Below, one piece after another: positions 1 to 56,568 of a stretch of 64,000 bases of DNA; position 1 is the stretch's first letter; each line of letters starts with the position of its first letter. Made by a program: the position numbers and the translations under genes. The notes beneath the pieces are model-generated. The model made no database searches, was not told the origin of the DNA, and saw only the letters and a program-made list of their open reading frames with translations. Source of the DNA: Blastocystis sp. subtype 4 (Eukaryota); assembly GCF_000743755.1 (NCBI RefSeq), contig NW_014569533.1:1-64000 (forward strand), read 5' to 3'.

Positions 1-3000
1 CTCTTCCAGGCAAACAAATGCAAACTTCAACAGTAACGAGTCCAGTGACATTCCTTCAATCTGGAAGTAACACGATTGCTATTGCTATTGTTGCTATTGA
101 TGATACTCAACTCACATCCTATTTCGATACAATGGTTCGTTTGATGTCATCAGAACAATCTGAATCTCATATCTGGGAATATAGTGTAAACACATTTGGG
201 ATTTACGTTGGTTTCGAAGCTTTTGATATGTACTGTGGAACCACCATCTATTATTCATCCTGTACTGCCAATTCTCTTACTTTGACTCTATCAAACAATC
301 GTCGTGAATGGATCAGTTCTGTTCAGATTCAGAACTATTACTCTTCATCTAGCAATCAATGGGTTACTGAATTCAATCTGTATGGTCGTAACTCAGATAC
401 AGATGAATGGACACTTCTGACCAATGTAACTGGTCTCACTTATTCCACTCCTGCTCAGAAGAGAAGAATCTATTTCCCTAACAATACTCCTTACAATCAA
501 TTCAAGTTTGAGAACTTTGCTACTGGTAATTCCTCTTCCTGTTATTGGAGAGTTCAATCTCTGGATCTGTTTGCTGATAATGTGTTGGCTGATATTCCTA
601 ACTTCACTTATGATTCTTCAGTCACTGTATTCAAGGATGTTGAGATGGTTGAAGTGATTCCTCAGAATGCGGATCGTTACATGAACTTCAGAGTCTCTCC
701 TGCTTTCCCTGCTGGTATTGTGTTGGATCGTTATTCTGGTTGGATCTCAGGTACTGCCACTTCTGAGAGTGCTGTTCAAACCTACACCATCACTGCTACA
801 AAGATTAGTGGAGGAGATGTGACTGATACTATCTCTCTCTCAGTTTCAGTATGTACTGGAGGCAAGGGATTGATGACTGTTCGTTTCTATGCTGATTCTT
901 ATAAGAGTGAGAATTCATGGAAACTGTATGAAGGAAGAGGAACCTCAGGAACTGTGTTGAGATCTGTTGACGTATTTCCTGTGAAGTCAGCATATTACTA
1001 TGTTGATTTCTGTTTGAATGATGGAATCTACACATTTGAAGGAGCTGATTCATTTGGAGATGGATGGGAAAATGGAAGTGGTTACACTTTGACTGTTGAT
1101 TATGGAGAGATGGAGTTGGATATCATGGAAATGGACACTGGTGTGAAACCTGTGTATGTATCAAGTGTGTTCTCAACGTATTTCCCTTTCCAAATTGAAT
1201 ACACAGATTGGAAGGTGATACAGAGTGATGTGTCAAGTGATTGGAATACTGTCAGTTTCGATGATTCCACTTGGAACACATACAAGGCTGCTGTCATTCC
1301 TTCCACTTCTTCAATCACAACATATATCCGAAAGAGTTTCACAATGAGTGGAGTGAATGATTATCAAGTGTTGAATGTTCGAGTGAAGTATTCTGGAGGA
1401 GTGGCTGCCTATCTGAATGGAAATGTGGTTGCTCGATTCAATCTTGAAGATGATTTCGATTCAACAAGTCTATCAATCACTGATCATGATTCTACTGTGT
1501 TCTCTAAGTTCCATGTGATTCTGTCAACAGCTGGAATTCAAGAAGGCAGTAATGTATTCAGTTTCGAGATTCATCGTGGTTTGAGTGGTTCTTCTTCTGA
1601 TGCTGTTGTGTTTGATGCTACTGGAGTATTTGGAGTTGATGACTGTTCTACTGTTGTTGACTCTTATTCTTCTATCACTTCTACTGAACTGGAATCAGGT
1701 ACTCTTGCTGGAATCATGGATCTTGATCCTTACACTTATGGTGTACTGCCTAATACGATTGGAACGTATATTGATTGGACTGTTGAGAATCTGGAAGGAA
1801 GCAAATGGAACTCATTCAACATAGTTGGAGCAACCACAGTCTCTTCTTGGGGCTTTGATATCAATGCAATCCACCATATTGATGATACTGTTGTTGGACC
1901 AGTTACGATTCTGAATGCAATGAATCAGAGAGTGGTTTCTCGAACAAAGCCTCAGATTGCTGTTCCTGTGGCTCTGGCTGGATTCCGTAGATATCGATGG
2001 CAAGTCACTAAAGCCAGTTCAACAACAGTCTTGGGTTCTGTTCATACAGCCTATTGTAAGCCAACAGGATCTGTGTGTCCTTCAATTGACAGCTATCCTT
2101 CAGTGGGTGAAGGTCAAATCTCTCCTTCTTCTTGTCCTGAGGGTTACAGTGGCTATTCATATCGTGAGTGTTCTGGAGGTGTGTTGGGTGAAGTGAAGAT
2201 GGATCATTGTGTATTCTTTACTCGAATCTACCTTCCTTCATCTTCCTATTCCTTTCTCATTCATCAATCCATCTCATTCACTATTGATATGAACAATGTC
2301 ACAAATTGTATCATCACTCCTTCTCTTCCTCAAGGGCTCATTCTTGATATTTCTTCTTGTACTGTCTCTGGTACTTTTACTTCCTCTTTTTTCTCTTCTT
2401 ACACTGTTACTGCCATTTCTGATTCAAACACTTTCATCCGTATTGTATCAATTGAGATCATTTCATCTCTCATCTCATATCCTCAAACCAATCTCATCAT
2501 TGGTCAAGGACTATCCTTCTCTATCACTCCCAATCTCACCAAAGTCTCTACTATCTCCATTGTCTCAGGATCACTTCCTATTGGTCTATCTATCAATCCA
2601 TCAACTGGAGTCATCTCTGGATCTCCTTCTCAATTACTCTCTTCTCAATCAGTCACAATTGAAGCAATGAGTGGAACAGCAATTCAAACTGTTGTTCTTT
2701 CATTCACTGTTATCACTCCTATCTCTTCATTCTCTTATTCTCAATCATCTTATGTTATATCAAAGAATCATCCATTCTCAATCATTCCTACTGTTGATGG
2801 AGATGATCTATCATTCTCTATCATATCAGGATCCCTTCCTATTGGACTATCACTCAATTCAATAACTGGAGTCATTTCTGGATCTCCTTCTCAATCCATA
2901 ATATCTCAATCAGTCACAATCAAAGCATTCAATCAAGTGAGTGATCAAACTATCTCACTCATATTCATGGTGCTCGCTTCCATCACTTCATTCTCTTATT

Positions 3001-6000
3001 CTCAATCATCCTATGTTCTGACAAAGAACAATCCATTCTCTATCATGCCTTCTGTTGATGGAAATGATCTTTCATTCTCTATCATATCAGGATCTCTTCC
3101 TGTTGGACTCTCACTCAATCCATCAACAGGAGTCATCTCTGGATCTCCTTCTCAATCTGTTATATCTCAGTCGGTTACTATCAAAGCATTCAATCAAGTG
3201 AGTGATCGATCATTCTCAATCACATTCACTATTCTCACTCCTATCTCCTCATTCGCATATCCTCAGTCTTCCTATATCCTATCAGCTGGTGTATCATTCT
3301 CTGTCTCTCCTACTGTCAATGGAGATGATCTATCATTCTCAATCACTTCAGGATCACTCCCCAATGGATTGTCTCTCAATCCCTCAACTGGTGTGATATC
3401 TGGAACTCCATCCCTATTCATTCTATTACAATCAGTTACTATCAAAGCATCGAATGAAGTGAGTGATCAATCATTCTCTCTTTCATTCACTGTTCTTCAA
3501 TCCATCTCGTTGTTCTCATATCCTCAGTCATTTTATGTTCTATCAAAGAACAGTCCATTTTCGGCTACTCCTTCAATCACTGGAGATGGTTTATCATTCT
3601 CTATTACATCAGGATCACTTCCTATTGGTCTGTCTCTAAATCCATCAACTGGGGTTATCTCAGGATCTCCATCTCAGTTTGTGATATCTCATTCAGTCAC
3701 AATCAAAGCATTCAATCAAGTGAGTGATCTTTCTGTTACACTCACATTCACAGTACTCACTTCCATCACTTCATTCTCTTATCCTCAAACTGTTTATGTT
3801 CTTGCAAAGGATCAATCATTCTCTGTGACTCCTATTGTTGATGGAGATGATTTATCATTCTCTATCACATCAGGAGCGCTTCCTACTGGTTTGACTCTCA
3901 ATGAATCAACTGGAGTCATATCTGGAATCCCTTCTCAATCTGTTATATCTCAATCAGTCACAATCAAAGTGTCGAATGAAGTGAGTGATCGATCATTCTC
4001 TCTCTCATTCACTGTTCTCACTCCTATCTCTTCATTCTCATATCCTCAATCATCCTATGTTCTATCCAAGAATCATCCATTCTCTGTCTCTCCTTCAGTC
4101 AATGGAGATGGTCTGTCATTCTCAATCATATCAGGATCTCTTCCTATTGGACTATCACTCAATCCATCAAATGGAGTCATATCTGGAATCCCTTCTCAAT
4201 CCACATCATCTCAATCTCTCACAATCAAAGCATTCAATGAAGTGAGCAATCAGTCATTCTCTCTTTCATTCACCGTTCTTCAATCCATCACGTCATTCTC
4301 ATATTCGCAGTCATCCTATGTTCTCTCAAGGAATGAATCATTCTCCACAACTCCTTCTGTCAATGGGGATGATCTATTGTTCTCTATCACATCAGGATCT
4401 CTTCCTATTGGTCTCTTGCTAAACTCAACAACTGGAGTGATATCAGGTATTCCATCTCAATCTGTGTCATCTCAATCAGTCACAATCAAAGCATCAAATG
4501 AACTGAGTGATCGATCATTCTCTATCTCATTCACTGTTCTCACTCCTATCTCTTCATTCTCTTATCCTCAGTCATCCTATGTTCTATCCAAGAATGAATC
4601 ATTTTCAATCACTCCTTCTGTGAATGGAGATGATCTTTCATTTACTATTTCATCAGGATCGTTTCCTGTTGGATTGTTTCTCAACTCTACAACAGGAGTG
4701 ATATCTGGTTCTCCTTCTCAATCTGTCATATCTCAATCAGTCACAATCAAAGCATCTAATCAAGTGAGTAATCAGTCGTTCTCTATCCTATTCACAATTC
4801 TCACTCCAATCACTTCTTTCAACTATCCTCAGTCTTCACTTATTCTATCAACTGGTGAATCATGTTCTATCCCTCCTTCTGTGAATGGAGATGATCTATC
4901 ATTCTCTATCATAATAGGATCTCTTCCAACTGGACTCAATCTAAACCCTTCGACGGGAGTCATATCTGGTTCTCCTTCTCAATTTGTAATAATGCAATCA
5001 GTCACAATCAAAGCATCAAATGATGTGAGTGATCGATCATTCTCTCTATCATTTACCATTCTTCAGTCTATCTCTTCATTCTCGTATCCTCAGTCTTCTT
5101 TCGTTTTGGCAAAGAATAGTTCGTTTTCTGTCACTCCTTCCATCACTGGAGATGGTTTGTCATTCTCGATTACATCAGGATCACTTCCTATTGGTCTGTC
5201 TCTAGATTCTTCTTCTGGTATCATTTTTGGTTCTCCTTCTCAGTTTGTGTTATCTCAATCAGTCACAATCAATGCTCACAATCAAGTGAGTGATCGATTT
5301 GTCATTCTCACATTCTCTATTCTCACTCCTATCACTTCATTCTCATATTCTCATTCTTCAATTGCTCTATCAAAGAATGAGTCATTCTCTTTCTCTCCTA
5401 CTGTTGATGGAGATGATCTTTCATTCTCTATCTCATCAGGATTTCTTCCTATTGGTCTATCTCTCAATTCAACAACTGGAATCATATCTGGAACTCCTTC
5501 TCAATCAGTATTATCTCAGTCAGTTACTATCAAGGCATTCAATGAAGTGAGTAATCGATCATTCTCTCTTTCATTCACTGTTCTCACTCCTATCTCTTCA
5601 TTTTCATATTCTCAATCATTCTATGTCCTATCAATAGATGAATCATTCTCTGTGATTCCTACTGTTGATGGAGATGAACTCTCATTCTCTATCTCATCAG
5701 GATATCTTCCAATTGGTCTATCTATCAATTCAACAACTGGAATCATATCAGGAACTCCTTCTCAATCTGTCAAATCACAGTCAATCATTATCAAAGCATT
5801 GAATGAAGTTAGTGATCAATCATTCTCTCTTTCATTCACCATTCTTCAATCGATCACTTCATTCTCTTATCCTCAGTCATCCTATGTTCTATCTAAGAAT
5901 GATCCTGTTTCAATCACTCCTTCAGTCAATGGAGATGAACTCTCATTCTCAATCACATCAGGATCTCTTCTTATTGGATTGTCTCTAAATCTATCAAATG

Positions 6001-7145
6001 GCATGATATCTGGAATCCCTTCTCAATTTGTGATATCTCAATCGATAACAATCAAAGCATCCAATGAAGTGAGTAATCGATTATTCTCTCTTTCATTCAC
6101 TGTTCTCACTCCTATCTCTTCATTCTCATATTCTCAATCATCCTATGTTCTATCAATAGATGAATCATTCTCAATCATTCCTACAGTTAATGGAGATGGT
6201 CTGTCTTTCTCTATCACATCAGGATCTCTTCCACTTGGGCTCATTCTAGACTCAACAACTGGAATGATATCAGGTATTCTGTCTCAATCTGTGTCATCTC
6301 AATCAGTCACAATCAAAGCATCAAATGAACTGAGTGGTCGATTGTATCCTCTTTCATTTTCTGTTCTAATTCCTATCTCTTCATTCTCTTATCCTCAGAC
6401 TTATTATATCCTTGCTGTTGGAGAAGACTATTCTGCTTCACCAGAAATACAAGCAACCAATCCTTTCTTCTCCATCTCATCAGGATCTCTTCCTATTGGT
6501 CTATCACTCAATCCAACAACTGGCTTGATATCTGGAATTCCATCTCAATCAGTTTCATCTCTATTGGTAACAATCAAAGTATCGAATGAACTGAGTGATC
6601 AATCATTCTCAATCACATTCACTATTATCACTCGTATCTCTTCATTCTCTTATCCTCAGTCATCCTATGTTCTATCAATATATAAATCATTCTCTGTGAT
6701 TCCTACTGTTGATGGAGATGGACACTTCTTTATCTCATCAGGATCACTTCCTATTGGTCTCTCTCTAAATCCATCCAGTGGAATGATATCAGGAACTCCT
6801 TCAACTGCAATCGAGTCTACGTCTCTCACAGTTGAAGTTTGCAATCTAATTGGATGTACCCAAACTCAATTATCCTTTAGTGTGAAGGCTCTATCATCTC
6901 TATCAATCCTTCTAATCTCTCTTGCTGTTCTCATTCTCATTATTGTTGTTATTGGTATCATTCGAAAGAAATCTCACATGCATTTGTATCGGAAGCGTGG
7001 ATCTCGGAAGCTTCCGATCTCGTACCCAACTAAGTTGAACCATACTCCTCAAACTGAGAAACCATCTATCTCAGTTGATAATCCACCTAATATGCTATCT
7101 AATATTACAGTTTATGATCCTCCAACCCCTTCTCATTCATCATAA
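1..7145 (+). CDS. Giant type I membrane/surface protein, 5'-partial: beta-sandwich/carbohydrate-binding-like N-terminal region, ~17-18 putative Ig (He_PIG-like) repeats, one TM helix, short cytosolic tail
   Basis: Uninterrupted 2375-aa ORF; the frame is open upstream of nt 18 (LPGKQ-M). Repeated 'FSITSGSLPIGLSLNPSTGVISGTP' motif. C-terminal hydrophobic helix LSILLISLAVLILIIVVIGII is followed by RKK. Confidence 0.85.
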   Translation, partial: LPGKQMQTSTVTSPVTFLQSGSNTIAIAIVAIDDTQLTSYFDTMVRLMSSEQSESHIWEYSVNTFGIYVGFEAFDMYCGTTIYYSSCTANSLTLTLSNNRREWISSVQIQNYYSSSSNQWVTEFNLYGRNSDTDEWTLLTNVTGLTYSTPAQKRRIYFPNNTPYNQFKFENFATGNSSSCYWRVQSLDLFADNVLADIPNFTYDSSVTVFKDVEMVEVIPQNADRYMNFRVSPAFPAGIVLDRYSGWISGTATSESAVQTYTITATKISGGDVTDTISLSVSVCTGGKGLMTVRFYADSYKSENSWKLYEGRGTSGTVLRSVDVFPVKSAYYYVDFCLNDGIYTFEGADSFGDGWENGSGYTLTVDYGEMELDIMEMDTGVKPVYVSSVFSTYFPFQIEYTDWKVIQSDVSSDWNTVSFDDSTWNTYKAAVIPSTSSITTYIRKSFTMSGVNDYQVLNVRVKYSGGVAAYLNGNVVARFNLEDDFDSTSLSITDHDSTVFSKFHVILSTAGIQEGSNVFSFEIHRGLSGSSSDAVVFDATGVFGVDDCSTVVDSYSSITSTELESGTLAGIMDLDPYTYGVLPNTIGTYIDWTVENLEGSKWNSFNIVGATTVSSWGFDINAIHHIDDTVVGPVTILNAMNQRVVSRTKPQIAVPVALAGFRRYRWQVTKASSTTVLGSVHTAYCKPTGSVCPSIDSYPSVGEGQISPSSCPEGYSGYSYRECSGGVLGEVKMDHCVFFTRIYLPSSSYSFLIHQSISFTIDMNNVTNCIITPSLPQGLILDISSCTVSGTFTSSFFSSYTVTAISDSNTFIRIVSIEIISSLISYPQTNLIIGQGLSFSITPNLTKVSTISIVSGSLPIGLSINPSTGVISGSPSQLLSSQSVTIEAMSGTAIQTVVLSFTVITPISSFSYSQSSYVISKNHPFSIIPTVDGDDLSFSIISGSLPIGLSLNSITGVISGSPSQSIISQSVTIKAFNQVSDQTISLIFMVLASITSFSYSQSSYVLTKNNPFSIMPSVDGNDLSFSIISGSLPVGLSLNPSTGVISGSPSQSVISQSVTIKAFNQVSDRSFSITFTILTPISSFAYPQSSYILSAGVSFSVSPTVNGDDLSFSITSGSLPNGLSLNPSTGVISGTPSLFILLQSVTIKASNEVSDQSFSLSFTVLQSISLFSYPQSFYVLSKNSPFSATPSITGDGLSFSITSGSLPIGLSLNPSTGVISGSPSQFVISHSVTIKAFNQVSDLSVTLTFTVLTSITSFSYPQTVYVLAKDQSFSVTPIVDGDDLSFSITSGALPTGLTLNESTGVISGIPSQSVISQSVTIKVSNEVSDRSFSLSFTVLTPISSFSYPQSSYVLSKNHPFSVSPSVNGDGLSFSIISGSLPIGLSLNPSNGVISGIPSQSTSSQSLTIKAFNEVSNQSFSLSFTVLQSITSFSYSQSSYVLSRNESFSTTPSVNGDDLLFSITSGSLPIGLLLNSTTGVISGIPSQSVSSQSVTIKASNELSDRSFSISFTVLTPISSFSYPQSSYVLSKNESFSITPSVNGDDLSFTISSGSFPVGLFLNSTTGVISGSPSQSVISQSVTIKASNQVSNQSFSILFTILTPITSFNYPQSSLILSTGESCSIPPSVNGDDLSFSIIIGSLPTGLNLNPSTGVISGSPSQFVIMQSVTIKASNDVSDRSFSLSFTILQSISSFSYPQSSFVLAKNSSFSVTPSITGDGLSFSITSGSLPIGLSLDSSSGIIFGSPSQFVLSQSVTINAHNQVSDRFVILTFSILTPITSFSYSHSSIALSKNESFSFSPTVDGDDLSFSISSGFLPIGLSLNSTTGIISGTPSQSVLSQSVTIKAFNEVSNRSFSLSFTVLTPISSFSYSQSFYVLSIDESFSVIPTVDGDELSFSISSGYLPIGLSINSTTGIISGTPSQSVKSQSIIIKALNEVSDQSFSLSFTILQSITSFSYPQSSYVLSKNDPVSITPSVNGDELSFSITSGSLLIGLSLNLSNGMISGIPSQFVISQSITIKASNEVSNRLFSLSFTVLTPISSFSYSQSSYVLSIDESFSIIPTVNGDGLSFSITSGSLPLGLILDSTTGMISGILSQSVSSQSVTIKASNELSGRLYPLSFSVLIPISSFSYPQTYYILAVGEDYSASPEIQATNPFFSISSGSLPIGLSLNPTTGLISGIPSQSVSSLLVTIKVSNELSDQSFSITFTIITRISSFSYPQSSYVLSIYKSFSVIPTVDGDGHFFISSGSLPIGLSLNPSSGMISGTPSTAIESTSLTVEVCNLIGCTQTQLSFSVKALSSLSILLISLAVLILIIVVIGIIRKKSHMHLYRKRGSRKLPISYPTKLNHTPQTEKPSISVDNPPNMLSNITVYDPPTPSHSS
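2480..6880 (+). repeat. Coding tandem repeat array, 261-nt (87-aa) unit, about 17 copies
   Basis: The unit marker 'gtgatc(g/a)atcattctc' and variants recurs near 2941, 3202, 3985, 4507, 5029, 5551 and 6595, all multiples of 261 nt apart. Confidence 0.9.
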
Positions 7146-15257: not shown

Positions 15258-17214
15258 ATGATAGCCCGGAAGTGGTTCATTGGTCGTTTATTGTATGGAT
15301 CCTTGTTAACAAGGCTCACTTGAAGATTACCAAGAGCGTTACTTCAACTCCATCATCATACTAGTTTTCTACGACCTATGGGTATCACTAAAATTAGTTC
15401 ATGATTTGTAGCTACGAAAGACTTTTCTAAGGGATATAAGTTCATTACTGAAGGGAGTGCAACCATTCTCTTCCCAGAGAGTAATGATGTATTCTATAAT
15501 AAGGTATTACCCAATAATCTGGTCCAATGTAGGTTCAAGTGAAGAATCGAGACCTTTCCATTCTTATGATCACTTTGTTTGGAGAATTGCAACAACAAGA
15601 ATGGGATCAATTGAAAGTATCCAAGCCCAAGCGATATGAAGGAATTATGGCTGAACGCAAGAAAGCAGCAGAAGCAGAAGGTATCTATGTACTTTTTTCA
15701 TTACAATCAAGGTAAACCATGGATTGCAGAAGAGGGTTTGTACATTTTGGAAGCCCTTGCTGCTTCAGGTCTTCGTAGTATCCGCTACTTCAACGAAATT
15801 CCTAATATTCGTCGAATCATCATTAATGATATTGCAGATGCAGCCGTAGAAAGCATGAAAGACAATCTCGCTTATAACAACATTACATCGAGTCGAGTAG
15901 TTCCAAATCAGGCGTACAATTCATTATTCCCATTCACTTCAGAGATGCAACCATGATCATGTATCAGAACCGTTCTCCTTCCTATCATTGTTTTGATGTG
16001 ATTGATCTTGATCCTTACGGTTCATGCAGTATCTTTCTCGATGGTGCAGTTCAATCCATTCGTGATGGAGGTTTGCTCTGTGTTACGAGTACTGATCTGA
16101 CTGTCCTTTGTGGCAATCATCCTGAAGTAGTGTTCACCAAATACGGAGCAAATTGTCCCAAAACCCCATTTTGTCATGAACTTGCTGTACGTATTCTTCT
16201 GTACACAATTCAGATGACTGCTGCTAGATATGGAAGAAGCATGGAAGTCTTAGGAGCTTTCCAAATTGACTTTTATGTGCGTTGTTTCGTTCGAATGTAG
16301 ATGTCTGAAATAGACTCAATTTTAGTCATGACAGTAAACTGGCCATTAAGCATTGTGCAATGAATTCTTCGCTTCTGTACTACTGTAATAATTGTCAGAA
16401 CTTCCAATTGCAGCCATTAGGCCGAACACATAGTACCCAATTGTAAGAGATCTGACGTCCAGAAGACAATACGTCCAAATTCCATCCTCCCAACTGTGAG
16501 GTTGATTCTCATTGTCCTTTGTGTGGTTCTCAGTACCGTGTAGGATTTATCATCCTCTTGTTAGCTAGCTTGGAGGACCAATCTTCAATGGTGCGTTACA
16601 CGATCATGTCTTCATCCAGAAGGCTATCGATCGACTCACTCAGCTCTATGTTACAAAGGATCCAGTGGCTGTTGCTGCCAGTCACTATCAGTGTTCTACT
16701 CACAGTATCTTGCTAGGACTTCTCACTGCAGTGAGTGTTGTAATTTCGTCTGATTCACAGATGCAAGAGGAGGTTCCTTCACCACTCTATTATAGCTTCC
16801 ATGGAGTCACATCTTCGCTCCGTCTCACTGCACCTAAGTATCAGGAAATCGCTTCGGCTTTACGCCATGCAGGGTATACCCAGTCGCAATGCCATTGTGA
16901 TCCATTAGCCCTCAAGACCAATGCTCCTGGATCTGTTGTGTTTGATATTTTTAGGGCCTATTTCCGTCAATTCCAGATGGAAGAGAAGAAAGATTGGCTG
17001 GAGCAATTGCCGGATTGTTTTGCAAAACAGTATCTGTCGCAACCTGCAGAAGGTGAGGTAGGATAAAGAAGAGAGAATTATGGAAAGTATGACTTTACGA
17101 TACTTCCAGACCTGAAGAAGGATTATGAATTCCCGCGTTTTCCTGGGAACCCGGAAGCGAACTGGGGACCGAAAGCCAGAGGCAGTTTGAAGAGGACAAA
17201 GTTAAGTGAGAATT
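15258..17214 (+). CDS. TRM1: tRNA (guanine26-N2)-dimethyltransferase, with optional N-terminal organellar presequence
   Basis: Motifs ITEG, VFYN..VQVKNRDLS, ILEALAASGLRSIRY, FDVIDLDPYGS, GGLLCVTSTD, KTNAP and PRFPGNPEANWGPKAR. ATGs at 15258 and 15378. No genomic stop before TGTTTGTT at 17219. Confidence 0.93.
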
Positions 17215-17218
17215 CGTT

Positions 17219-17226
17219 TGTTTGTT
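17219..17226 (+). terminator. TGTTTGTT 3'-end motif (TRM1)
   Basis: Starts 5 nt after T17214, the first base of the codon following ...LSEN. Confidence 0.8.
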
Positions 17227-17248: not shown

Positions 17249-17779
17249 ATGGAAGCAGAAACCAAATCTAGTTCTCCAATTTCAAGGGATGAATGGAGAA
17301 TGATAATGAGAAAGAATTTCTGCAGAAAAGACATGATTGATGAAGATGGTAATTTAGTCAAAGAGTCAATTATATGATGTTCCACTAATCATATAGATAC
17401 TTCCACTTAAAAAAGTTAAAGACTTGGACACTTCGGGAGGAGTATCTTCTCATTGAGGGAATCCAAGCATATGGGGTTGGAGAATGGGAACGAGTCAGGA
17501 GGGATTACCTTCCAGATTGGGTAGATGTGGTATAGGAAGATGATATTTTAGGTTACAGAAGATATTCGGCTGAAAGCTTGCAGATTATTTGGTATTCAAC
17601 ATATTGAAACATATCAAGGGTTTAAAGGAGGCAAGGAAGAGATTCAACGAGTAGAGTTTGGACATGATTATCATGTTTTAGGAGTGGGAAAAGAATCGAG
17701 AACGTGGAATTGCACAAAATTTGTGGTATAACAATGTTCTCATTGATAAGCGATTTGGGTTGGTATATAAAGATGTATG
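17249..17779 (+). CDS. Small Myb/homeodomain-like protein resembling p2, an accessory subunit of the MTA1c (AMT1) DNA N6-adenine methyltransferase complex
   Basis: Absent from the ORF track. Exons 17249-17364, 17397-17520, 17552-17650 and 17682-17779 with 31-32-nt GT-AG introns give 145 aa: MEAETKSSSPISRDEWRMIMRKNFCRKDMIDEDGNLVKEYFHLKKLKTWTLREEYLLIEGIQAYGVGEWERVRRDYLPDWVTEDIRLKACRLFGIQHIETYQGFKGGKEEIQREWEKNRERGIAQNLWYNNVLIDKRFGLVYKDV. Confidence 0.8.
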
Positions 17780-17806
17780 GAACTCTTTGTTATCAATCCA
17801 ATTTCT

Positions 17807-17816: not shown

Positions 17817-20800
17817 TCAGATTTGCCTTAATCGAGACAAATAGTGTGGCACTTTGCATAATATGTCTGTGCACGTATCGATGTGGGCATCAAAGATACG
17901 TTTTAATTCTTTACACAAACTACACTTGTTACTGGTACAAAACAGATAATGTTTGATTGCAGCTCGAATAGAGGAACAATAAGGAACACTACAATCTGAA
18001 GCCGTACATGTAAAGCAATGAGAAAGAGCTTCACTCTGAATCTCAAATGGTAGAGATTTGCCAAACTATACATCAAATCCGCCTCACAGTCTTACTGATG
18101 AATTGGATGAAATTGAGTGAGCTGTAACTTCAACCTCAAAAGGAACCAGTTCATGTTCATGAATCCTGCAATTGTCACAGAGATCAAAATCGTCACATAT
18201 TCTGCAATGCCACCGTTTCCCAGAAATAATATAATTCTTACACTAAACTTCATCTCCACATTCTCTTTCTCACCTTATTGCATACATGTACTTCCGTGGG
18301 AATTTGTGGATTATAGCAGTGAAACAAAATCATCATTGTACTGTACACAGCTCTTCGTATCTATATCTGATTCATGTCTCTTTCATATACTTGATCGAAC
18401 TGATAATGATAGAATTGGCAAATTGTCATAAAAATCTGTCGGCTTTCAAACATACGACAGACAAGCCAATTATTCCTCTCTTGAAGAGTTGGAGCAATTG
18501 GAGGTATTGTCACAGCAGCATCTCGCTCCATCACAGGAAGTCCAGAAAGACATGTCTCACACACGTATTTCTGTCGTGTGATTTCTTGACGTCCAGTACG
18601 ACTCTTAACCACAGGCTCCACCCAACACTCCTCTGGGATACAGTAATGAACCTGATCTCGAAGGTACCGACCACACTCACAGCATTGATGCTGGAGCTTC
18701 ACAACTAACAAACGAACACGAATATCCTTCAACGAAGCAGCCACAGTACTCAGTAACTCACCCTTCTTTGCACGACGACGTGGTGCAGTAGTGAGTGATG
18801 ACTGTGACTTATCATCCTCTCCAATGCTTACATCCGAATCACCTTCCTCAGGTTGAGGACATACACATCCTGGATTCGCTAATCGTTCCTTGCATCGTTC
18901 ATCTGTCTCCTTTACCCAGTAATCATCACTAAACTGTGGAACATACAGCAATGCTGTATCTTCCATTCTAATTCTCATTCATTCTTCCCAATTCACACGA
19001 TCGTTTGTATCTTCCACTCAAATACTCCTCAGTCAAATTTGACACATCTGTCACAATCTGTTCTCGATTTGCTCGACTCAACAGTTCCATGTACCATCGT
19101 TGCAAATGTTCTGTTGTTGGAGTACGTTGTTCCTGTGGATGTGAGAAGCTATTCCTTACTCTCTCTTACATAGTACTTACAACACATAGTCGTCGCCTTT
19201 CCGAGGTGGACATACCCAGATATGAGCTGTGTTGAATCCTTTCTCTTTCACATACGCCAAGTAACCAATCACCATCTCCTGATATACAGAAGTACGATAA
19301 CTTGAAGGACTAAGGAAACGAACACTATCCAGATACGAGATATAAACTGATCGAGTGTTACTCACTGAAGCTTCTGGACACTCGTAGACAAACATTATGA
19401 AGACCAACACATCCATTTCATGAATTGTCTATGACAAAAATAGTACCGATTTTGTACCTGAAATAAACAAAGACATTTTTCGATATATGGGATTTTGGAA
19501 GGGAAATTGAAATTGTGGAAATACTTCAGAAAATGTTCACCTACTGAATATTCCGTTTTCTAGCTATCAAAGAGACATGACAAATACATTGTTTAAGAAC
19601 AATCGAACTCTCAATCCTTCAGGAGCGGGAACAGAATCAGGAGTACAGTTCAATTCTTTGGCTCGTTGCTGACGTTGGCGTAGAATTAGACTATGAATTC
19701 GATTCTCCAAAAAACGACTGATTTCTGTCTCCTCGAAATCTGAGAATTAGTTCACTCCTTCATGAATACCTGTGACAGAAGGTATATATAATGTAGCACG
19801 TTCAGTAATACAATTCTCATGCAAATCAAGGATACATTGAGGACAATGAAAAATGAATGCATGATCTTGCTCATAGAGTCGATTATTGAATAGAACACAA
19901 ATTGTATGAAATGACTGATGACAATGATCGCATCGAATCCATTCTTCTTTCTCCTTGTGAACATTCATCACACATTCCAAGCTAGATTTGCGATATTCTT
20001 TTCCTTCACACTCAAATACATCTGTTAGTCTTTCATAACAAGCTTCACACCATACATGCTGACCTTCCTTATCTCTATAATACTTCTTGTTTAGCTCAAT
20101 TACTTCCAGACAGCTTCCACTACAATGTAATAATTGTCCTTCTAGCATATAACAGCCTCCCGAACATAATCCACAAATCGTGCCTTTTTGGTCCTTTTGA
20201 TAGGAATCACGAAGAGAGGTGTTTCGGCGCTGTAAATCAGTAAAGCGCTGCTGAAAATACAATTTGATATATGTGGAATAGTTTAAAATGGAGGAATCGC
20301 GATTAAAGCTCTCACAGTTCGAAAACATGCGTTGTAAGGCTTTCTGAATACTTTGAATGCTTTTGAAATCGAAATGTTGATTTGCCTTCTCAAGAGACTC
20401 CAAGTCAACAGGATTTGTAATACGTTGATAATATTCGCTACATCCTCTTGCTGTTACATCTACTGGATAGTGAAATAACTTCTGAGAACTATGCATCAAC
20501 TGCAATCTTCATAAACACTCTTTGATCTTGATATCGTGGAGTAAATGAGAGATCTCTATCTTTAGAGTCGATGGTTTCCACCAAGGAGAAGTTGTATCCC
20601 GTAGCATTTGCATGTAATCCATAAGCTAATAAGGAACCTATAATATTCATAATTATACCTGTTTATCTGTCATAAGCATGAAAGCAGAGGGAAGAAGATG
20701 ACTGCGAAGGTCAAACTCTCGATTCTTCTCCTAGGATTCAACCATCATTCTATCCACTACAGCGTGATATGCTCGAGCTTTAGCACAATAATTACAGTCT

Positions 20801-21554
20801 GGATCACTACATTGGGAGAGATGAGCCACAGTAACACGAAATGCGATACAGTCTGGGTTCTATAAATAAAGTTCACTTGGAAAACATTATAGTGCATTCT
20901 CGAGGATTACAATCCCTCACATGTTTCAAGAGTCTTTTAAACCTCTTGCAGTCTGTATCCAACTATAATAAATAATCCAGCCAAATCCAACATCGCATCC
21001 TTTCGTACACTTCTGGAGATGATGCACTTCATGGAATACCATTTTGAAAGTGTCTGTCAGATCCGATAAATCCTTATCTAAATACGACTGCAACATTTCG
21101 GATGTAAAACACAGACATCTCGGAATATGATCCCCTGTTAGAGGATACGGAGATAGCTTACGTAATTTAATAGGTGGTTCAGAACTATAATCCTATTTCT
21201 AAATACATCACTTCAATGCTACTTGAGTCTTCTGATCCACAAAATAGGAAACAAGTGGAGATTTGGAAGCAAAGAGGGAAGATAACTCAGATTCTATCTC
21301 CAAAGTACACTTCAAATCAAGACTGAATTGTCCCTAGAAATTATCCCATCCATTTTCATTCCAAATACGTTCGTTGCATACTTCTTTCTGAAGTAATCTG
21401 CAATCTTGCACACTTCTTCACTTTGAATCCTGAAACTAATACCAGTCTGCTTCAGTAATAGGTTTTGTCTTCTTAATCACAACTATCCCACATCTTACAA
21501 AAGAACGCAAAAACCATCACTTGTTTCAAGCAGAGGGTGAGTTGCATCACTCAT
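17817..21554 (-). CDS. CBP/p300-type histone acetyltransferase (TAZ1, bromodomain, RING/PHD, KAT11 HAT, ZZ, TAZ2)
   Basis: HAT motifs VYISYLDSV, AHIWVCPPRKGDDY and YVPQFSDDYW; ZZ 'WHCRICDDFDLCDNC' near 18150-18210; TAZ2 'HCFTCTASDCSVPYC...HIDTCTDILCKVP' near 17830-18030; bromodomain 'LFHYPVD...YYQRITNPVDL'. Confidence 0.9.
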
Positions 21555-36359: not shown

Positions 36360-36422
36360 GGAGAAACATCAAGAATTAGATCATAAAACAGAAGAGAGTG
36401 TTTGTTGAAATAGAAAAAGAAA

Positions 36423-36495
36423 TGCCCCTGCCGTGATTCGAACACGGGTTATCACGGCCACAACGTGATGTACTGACCAACTATACTACAGTGGC
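36423..36495 (-). tRNA. tRNA-His (GTG)
   Basis: Reverse complement GCCACTGTAGTATAGTTGGTCAGTACATCACGTTGTGGCCGTGATAACCCGTGTTCGAATCACGGCAGGGGCA folds as a cloverleaf with a GTG anticodon. Confidence 0.93.
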
Positions 36496-36531
36496 ACCTG
36501 AAAGGGTTCCTTTTCACTTCTATTTAGGAAT

Positions 36532-56253: not shown

Positions 56254-56303
56254 TGACTAATAAGTCAATATGGAGTGAGAAAACGAAAAGTACAAAAGAA
56301 AAA

Positions 56304-56377
56304 TGCTCAAACGGGGGATCGAACCCCAGACCTTCGCGTTATTAGCACGACGCTCTAACCAGCTGAGCTATTCGAGC
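56304..56377 (-). tRNA. tRNA-Ile (AAT)
   Basis: Reverse complement GCTCGAATAGCTCAGCTGGTTAGAGCGTCGTGCTAATAACGCGAAGGTCTGGGGTTCGATCCCCCGTTTGAGCA folds as a cloverleaf with an AAT anticodon. Confidence 0.95.
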
Positions 56378-56568
56378 ATGTATGAATTCAAAACAAGTAG
56401 AATACGAGACTTTGACTGAATGCATCATAACAGATTGAAGTGTGAATGCCTTGTATAGAAGAAGTTGAAAAGGTTAGCAAAGTAAGAGAGAAAGAAGTTC
56501 ATTCATCTCCACTTTCATTGTTGATTCCTTTTGTCTTGGCTTTTGTTGCGAATTGATCAGACAAGAGC

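Follow-up and report, generated by a model that had tools for sequence, protein, structure and literature searches.

Between the TRM1 gene (PF02005) and a bromodomain/PHD gene resembling CBP on the minus strand, the window (the whole 64,000-nucleotide stretch of Blastocystis sp. subtype 4 DNA analyzed here) holds a small spliced gene on the forward strand, referred to below as the p2 gene after the protein that it very probably encodes. The original prediction had placed a four-exon gene of 145 amino acids (aa) between these two neighbors, at positions 17249-17779, and this arrangement was borne out: domain matches confirm both flanking genes, the coordinates are exact, and an RNA contig skips the introns. 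When translated by coordinates, the locus (JH06_0548; 17249-17779, +) comprises exons of 116, 124, 99, and 98 nt separated by introns of 32, 31, and 31 nt, all bordered by GT..AG, and its reading frame runs through 145 codons followed by TG, giving a spliced product of 145 aa. Because no stop-to-stop open reading frame (ORF) across the region is longer than 59 aa, the gene is missed by an ORF track.

The p2 gene of subtype 4 is transcribed and spliced into this 145-aa reading frame. In the public RNA run X1, a 381-nt contig extends over 17262-17736 and skips all three introns exactly, its gaps falling at 17365-17396, 17520/21-17551, and 17651-17681, such that the introns, whose verification by RNA sequencing had been proposed at the outset, are all spliced in one RNA study. 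The poly(A) tail on the transcript of the upstream TRM1 gene in this run shows X1 to be RNA; X1 is the sole RNA study behind the splicing, with runs X2-X4 having no coverage of the p2 gene and runs X5-X8 consisting of low-depth, unspliced DNA. The borders of introns 2 and 3 are ambiguous by one G and were placed in the GT..AG form.

Exon 1 (17249-17364, +; 116 nt) carries codons 1-38 along with two bases of codon 39 and so specifies the N-terminal tail together with the long helix of the N-terminal p2 domain, a segment in which M20-R21-K22 is conserved; its ATG at 17249 is the same start as in the orthologues of B. hominis and metagenome contig L001, and the RNA contig covers the exon from 17262 onward. 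Intron 1 (17365-17396, +; 32 nt, phase 2) is removed by joining 17364 to 17397, and exon 2 (17397-17520, +; 124 nt) opens with the Tyr40 codon (17398-17400) as its first full codon and continues with the first two helices of a Myb/homeobox-like domain (W49 ... GVGEW69). Intron 2 (17521-17551, +; 31 nt, phase 0), across which the RNA joins 17519/20 to 17551/52, is followed by exon 3 (17552-17650, +; 99 nt), which completes the homeobox-like domain with its third helix (EDIRLKACRLFGIQ) and opens the C-terminal domain (Y..GFKG). After intron 3 (17651-17681, +; 31 nt, phase 0; RNA joining 17650 to 17682), exon 4 (17682-17779, +; 98 nt) carries on with the long helix of that domain (EKN..G...LW) and finishes the protein with its tail; the exon ends in TG, with RNA contig coverage extending to 17736 only.

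The gene was described at first as hidden, which holds with respect to the ORF track but not with respect to NCBI, where it is already present both for subtype 4 (mis-modeled) and for B. hominis. Exon 2 is 100% identical to the hypothetical protein JH06_0548 of Blastocystis sp. subtype 4, and the NCBI model of that protein (P0002, 120 aa; 17306-17731, +) starts at the internal Met20 and keeps intron 3; the last 24 residues of this model are wrong, and the true C-terminal domain is missing from it. The B. hominis orthologue (P0005, 142 aa), listed by NCBI as a "Myb-like domain-containing protein," is colinear with the 145-aa product from end to end, with no internal gaps after residue 10. Word-indexed protein searches matched only Blastocystis copies and fragments. 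The orthologue is also borne by three metagenome contigs (L001-L003) from another Blastocystis lineage, with exons of 116, 124, 99, and 97 nt and introns of 32, 38, and 30 nt at the same sites. Because 105 of 145 residues are identical between the subtype 4 protein and that of the metagenome lineage while synonymous sites are saturated (pS of 0.99 versus pN of 0.18), we consider this to be a protein-coding gene under constraint.

The 3' end of the gene appears to depend on polyadenylation, in that the final TG at 17779 is predicted to be completed to a TGA stop by an A of the poly(A) tail. A predicted polyadenylation downstream element, TCTTTGTT (17784-17791, +), which is one base off TGTTTGTT, begins exactly 4 nt past the predicted cleavage site after 17779, and the rule described for the Blastocystis downstream element is a 4-nt spacing with up to two substitutions (PMC4159000). 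The element itself, TGTTTGTT, is present in 22 copies in the window, versus 4.1 expected. The orthologue on the three metagenome contigs has no genomic stop and reads GAG T/GTCC/TGTTTGTT at the same codon. We infer the end at 17779 from the spacing of TCTTTGTT together with the orthologues ending at the same alignment column. The same 3' arrangement is found in TRM1, for which the poly(A) was observed in RNA: this gene has no genomic stop, and its mRNA contig ends at 17214 and continues with 23 A residues, converting AAT T to AAT TAA. Its 3' end (17086-17226, +) reads AAT T/CGTT/TGTTTGTT, with TGTTTGTT at 17219-17226, four bases past the cleavage site. The X1 RNA shows, in addition, the splicing out of a 30-nt intron from TRM1 at about 17056.

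Downstream, the CBP/p300-like gene (17817-21000, −) is convergent with the p2 gene and contains a bromodomain and a PHD domain, along with ZZ and TAZ-like cysteine motifs recognized by eye. It has its own TGTTTGTT at 17814-17807 (−), which places the predicted poly(A) sites of the two genes about 40 nt apart. On the three metagenome contigs, the adjacency to TRM1 is kept and that to the CBP-like gene is not kept within 3 kb, and we therefore ruled out the CBP-like adjacency as a functional link, since it is not conserved within that distance. Elsewhere in the window, an uninterrupted open frame of 2380 codons (3-7142, +) runs off the window start and contains 16 He_PIG (putative Ig) repeats (E value of 1e-149), and it is unusually long and intron free for this genome. 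The window also includes a tRNA-His(GTG) gene at 36422-36496 (−) and a tRNA-Ile(AAT) gene at 56303-56378 (−).

We consider it highly probable that this gene is the subtype 4 orthologue of p2 (AMTP2), a small helper subunit of MTA1c/AMT1, the eukaryotic complex for N6-adenine methylation of DNA, and that its product likely works as in ciliates. In single-sequence searches, the B. hominis protein matches Tetrahymena AMTP2 (7f4l_B) with an E value of 5.7e-13, residues 12-124 aligning to residues 16-129 of 142, and Paramecium p2 with an E value of 4.5e-11; the next match is a Terfa Myb domain (1.4e-4), and p1 scores 0.24. Even the annotated protein of the window, P0002, matches AMTP2 at 1.6e-11, with the best non-p2 match, a generic Myb protein, at 3.4e-4. 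HMMER, run in full against 1.84 billion representatives, returned 290 relatives with E values of ≤1e-3, 97 of them at ≤1e-10. From these, a family profile was built of 51 sequences, i.e., P0005 and 50 of the 150 matches listed, mostly chosen as single-stretch matches spanning most of the query, leaving out multirepeat Myb proteins, most short fragments, and the longer forms. The profile matches whole chains of Paramecium p2 (4.1e-33) and Tetrahymena p2 (about 3e-31), and it matches p1 (2.9e-12) on the homeobox-like part only, with SNAPC4 at 5.3e-11. Homology is, hence, stronger to defined p2 proteins than to p1 or Myb proteins in both the single-sequence and the profile searches.

The structural searches lead to the same family. 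An AlphaFold2 model of the B. hominis orthologue, computed with the family alignment (pLDDT of 93.5 and pTM of 0.77), has helices at residues 10-21 and 35-38, then at 48-61, 66-72, and 79-90, and finally at 95-98 and 105-122. The predicted fold thus consists of a long and a short N-terminal helix, a three-helix homeobox/Myb-like core, and a short and a long C-terminal helix, which matches the architecture of p2, whose three-domain layout within a small chain of some 130-170 aa is described in PMC9174199. When compared with the PDB by Foldseek, all nine matches with E values of ≤0.001 are p2 chains of MTA1c or MTA1-p2 entries, covering 123-127 columns with TM scores of 0.63-0.69 by target; with an rmsd of about 10 Å, the free model departs somewhat from these chains in the placement of its domains. 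The tenth match, chain C of an MTA1c entry, is in our view p1. The identification proposed from the sequence is, therefore, upheld in the sense that the best matches belong to the p2 clade and not to generic Myb/SANT proteins in single-sequence, profile, and structure searches alike, with p2 chains also leading the AlphaFold/Foldseek comparison made with the B. hominis orthologue. The p2 motifs listed in that proposal are broadly recognizable in the alignments to Tetrahymena p2, with two amendments: F and DG are separated by 8 residues, not 4, and the motif given as LR.C is present as LKAC in the Blastocystis protein.

The residues of greatest functional interest lie in the N-terminal domain, which in p2 holds two loops of AMT1 that form the SAM pocket and in which the Tetrahymena substitution Y41A abolishes SAM binding (PMC9174199). 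Tyr40 of the subtype 4 protein aligns with this SAM-pocket tyrosine, in a family column occupied by Y 36 times and by F 11 times among 50 sequences, and R21 aligns with Tetrahymena R22, where the family alignment has R in 47 of 47. Further conserved family columns are R83, G91, Q93, and Y98 (B. hominis numbering). Among the nine Tetrahymena p2 contacts to the AMT1 methyltransferase domain described in PMC9174199, two (R22 and Y41) are identical here and one is conservatively replaced (Y17 by W16), five (N20, D24, S26, N27, and H39) differ, and T44 makes a backbone contact. The five differing side-chain contacts are a caveat to a conserved interface unless the AMT1 partner has covaried.

MTA1c methylates ApT, with hemimethylated sites being preferred. 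Reasoning by homology from Tetrahymena, we expect the N-terminal domain of the Blastocystis protein to dock on the catalytic subunit AMT1 at its MT-A70 domain and, through Tyr40 and the neighboring backbone, to keep in place the two loops of the SAM pocket, such that AMT1 would bind its cofactor SAM only with p2 present. The other two domains, homeobox-like and C-terminal, would pack on the N-terminal helix of AMT1 and would tether the DNA-reading subunit p1. AMTP2 itself is modeled without a DNA contact of its own in the 2026 version of a preprint (10.1101/2025.07.08.663716).

Among relatives of the protein, an organism name is attached to 11 of the 20 top HMMER matches that were looked up, namely, Blastocystis sp. 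Blastoise, Aplanochytrium, Bathycoccus prasinos, Lichtheimia, Rhizophagus clarus, Ambispora, Balamuthia, Planoprotostelium, Thecamoeba, Diphylleia, and Pigoraptor. AMT1 has been reported in green algae, early-diverging fungi, and labyrinthulomycetes (PMC12695648 and PMC12019607); of the relatives, Aplanochytrium, Bathycoccus, Lichtheimia, and Rhizophagus, together with the amoebozoans, belong to lineages with reported AMT1, and Aplanochytrium is the sole relative genus named in the rows of the published AMT1 table that were compared. Look-alikes in the ESM Atlas include Zoopagomycota and Chlorophyta clusters at 0.96, which we treat as a lead only. Several relatives depart from the usual length. 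An ORF from the transcriptome of Thecamoeba quadrilineata (P0015, 385 aa) contains a bromodomain at 17-114 (Pfam E value of 6.8e-14) and a full p2 module at 237-371 (E value of 3.8e-23 to the Blastocystis protein), which, if the transcript is real, would represent an acetyl-lysine reader fused to a subunit of a 6mA writer. Other long forms (P0021 from Rhizophagus, 421 aa, as well as P0038 and P0052) have N-terminal extensions with no Pfam match. Conversely, five HMMER matches from other organisms (P0017, P0027, P0028, P0042, and P0059) start right at the YF motif; we rejected these as p1 genes, as they look like p2 with a missed first exon. Their common starting point suggests either that an intron just ahead of the codon of the SAM-pocket tyrosine may be shared beyond Blastocystis or that gene callers commonly miss first exons.

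Partners for p2 in Blastocystis are available from published tables, whose AMT1 and AMT6/7 entries are those of B. hominis, a sister strain of subtype 4. For Blastocystis_hominis, Supplementary Table 1 of PMC12695648 (2025) lists two AMT1 and one AMT6/7, with AMT2/5, METTL4, METTL3, and METTL14 all at 0; the tree file of that paper includes CBK22092, CBK23014, and CBK24695, and Supplementary Data 3 of PMC12019607 (2025) gives CBK23014.2 as B. hominis Mta1 and CBK22092.2 as Mta9. According to PMC12695648, neither p1 nor p2 occurs in the absence of AMT1. Within the window, no MT-A70 domain was detected in 58 of the 73 long ORFs, nor in six of the other 15, and a search with the family profile among proteins of 455-2000 aa, a range above the length of ciliate p1 (about 360 aa), produced no match. 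A full-text literature search returned no paper on 6mA or MT-A70 in Blastocystis, and a search of the literature for DNA methylation in Blastocystis returned nothing relevant.

The implication of a complete AMT1/MTA1c system and genic ApT 6mA that accompanied the original prediction is supported indirectly; it is reasonable and in line with the published tables for the sister strain, and subtype 4 likely methylates its DNA adenines by means of an MTA1c-type complex. In its most specific form, namely, that Blastocystis runs a working MTA1c-type writer (two AMT1, AMT6/7, and p2) that deposits symmetric ApT 6mA on transcribed genes and does so without METTL3, METTL14, and METTL4, this is a reading that we favor on balance. 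If it is true, DNA 6mA would be the sole MT-A70-based methylation of Blastocystis, would be absent from the host, and could be read from long-read data that already exist; should p1 really be absent, the complex would constitute a natural three-subunit variant of MTA1c.

Alternative readings differ in how much of the above they accept. The one that fares best, although we regard it as unlikely, grants that the gene is a true p2 orthologue and supposes that its original job has been lost or changed, with AMT1 lost or inactive or with no detectable 6mA, and that the protein has another chromatin role exercised via its Myb-like domain. Such a change would fit with most side-chain contacts to AMT1 being different from those of Tetrahymena and with the repeated loss of AMT1 in eukaryotes, including 10 of the 14 heterokonts in the table of PMC12695648 (the 4 with AMT1 being three labyrinthulomycetes and Blastocystis), but B. 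hominis keeps both copies of AMT1 along with AMT6/7 (PMC12695648 and PMC12019607). The p2-specific N-terminal domain is, moreover, under strong purifying selection across Blastocystis lineages, its SAM-pocket tyrosine and its invariant arginine included, the gene is expressed, as evident from the X1 RNA contig, and the reported restriction of p2 to genomes with AMT1 also argues against a p2 that has outlived its partner.

It is very improbable that the protein is unconnected with DNA methylation and is instead a generic DNA-binding protein of the single-repeat Myb/SANT or TRF-like kind, such as a factor acting at telomeres or snRNA promoters. This possibility arises from searches with partial sequence, in that exon 2 alone scores best against SNAPC4 (E value of 7.7e-7) and zebrafish Terfa (1e-4), with AMTP2 weaker (0.011), and from Pfam, which does not include the p2 family and gives only weak, subthreshold matches to Myb_DNA-binding and HTH_CHD1_Hrp3. 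With the full-length protein, however, p2 is ahead of every Myb protein by 7 to 8 orders of magnitude, and with the family profile it is ahead by more than 20 orders; the match takes in the N- and C-terminal domains, which are absent from Myb proteins, whereas generic Myb domains appear among the Foldseek results only from an E value of 0.13 and over about 45 residues. That the protein is a p1 (AMTP1) subunit or a p1/p2 hybrid is barely credible, since, despite the homeobox-like domain common to p1 and p2, the p1 profile match of 3e-12, and the p1 chain at the tenth structural position, the match is confined to the homeobox-like part (profile positions 55-141 versus chain positions 20-107), a length of 145 aa fits p2 (142 aa) rather than p1 (360 aa), p2 alone matches the N-terminal region MRK...DG.L...YF, and there is no C-terminal helix-turn-helix.

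The assignment to p2 supplies a corrected gene model and a name for a protein listed as hypothetical in subtype 4 or as Myb-like in B. hominis, and it adds a SAM-pocket-activating subunit to the AMT1 and AMT6/7 proteins already tabulated for Blastocystis. The ancestral status and wide distribution of AMT1 with p1/p2 are already in print, and the Blastocystis p2 extends, rather than changes, this general principle; given the published AMT1 and AMT6/7 of B. hominis and the linkage of AMT1 to p1/p2, it is an expected member of the family. The attendant prediction is that Blastocystis DNA carries ApT 6mA on its active genes. Blastocystis is an anaerobic stramenopile that lives amid 6mA-rich bacteria and is the commonest eukaryote of the human gut, and an ApT signal of the eukaryotic type would be of use in sorting out its DNA from metagenomes. 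To our knowledge, nothing equivalent to the AMT1/MTA1c pathway exists in the human host.

Set beside known proteins, the Blastocystis product resembles the Myb repeats of TRF1/TRF2/Terfa and SNAPC4 in the three-helix core encoded by exons 2 and 3, over only about 45 residues and with no extension of the match into the flanking p2 domains; a similarity between the DNA-binding domains of TRF and p2 is noted in PMC9174199. With p1/AMTP1 (7F4L chain E, 7YI8 chain C, and 8XYL chain C) it has the homeobox/Myb-like domain in common, but p1 is a protein of about 360 aa in which an N-terminal region reads DNA and a C-terminal helix-turn-helix binds AMT1, and the Blastocystis protein lacks those parts and has a p2-type N-terminal domain instead. 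The best structural match is p2/AMTP2 of Tetrahymena thermophila (7F4L chain B, 8XYL chain D, and 7YI8 chain D), which is of similar length (142 versus 145 aa), has the same three-part layout, and is colinear over nearly the whole chain, with Y41, R22, and the GVG.W, LR/K.C..G, and N...G motifs being kept. The two proteins differ in that identity is about 31% and most of the side chains that hydrogen bond to Tetrahymena MTA1 are changed, and the Blastocystis gene differs from that of Tetrahymena in its three short introns and its predicted polyadenylation-made stop. The best profile match is p2 of Paramecium tetraurelia (Ptep2, 7F4T chain B), which is aligned over residues 4-127 of 128 and has 26 to 27% identity to the Blastocystis protein in the structural alignment. 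Because Ptep2 can substitute for Tetrahymena p2 in activating SAM binding (PMC9174199), the function of p2 evidently tolerates divergence.
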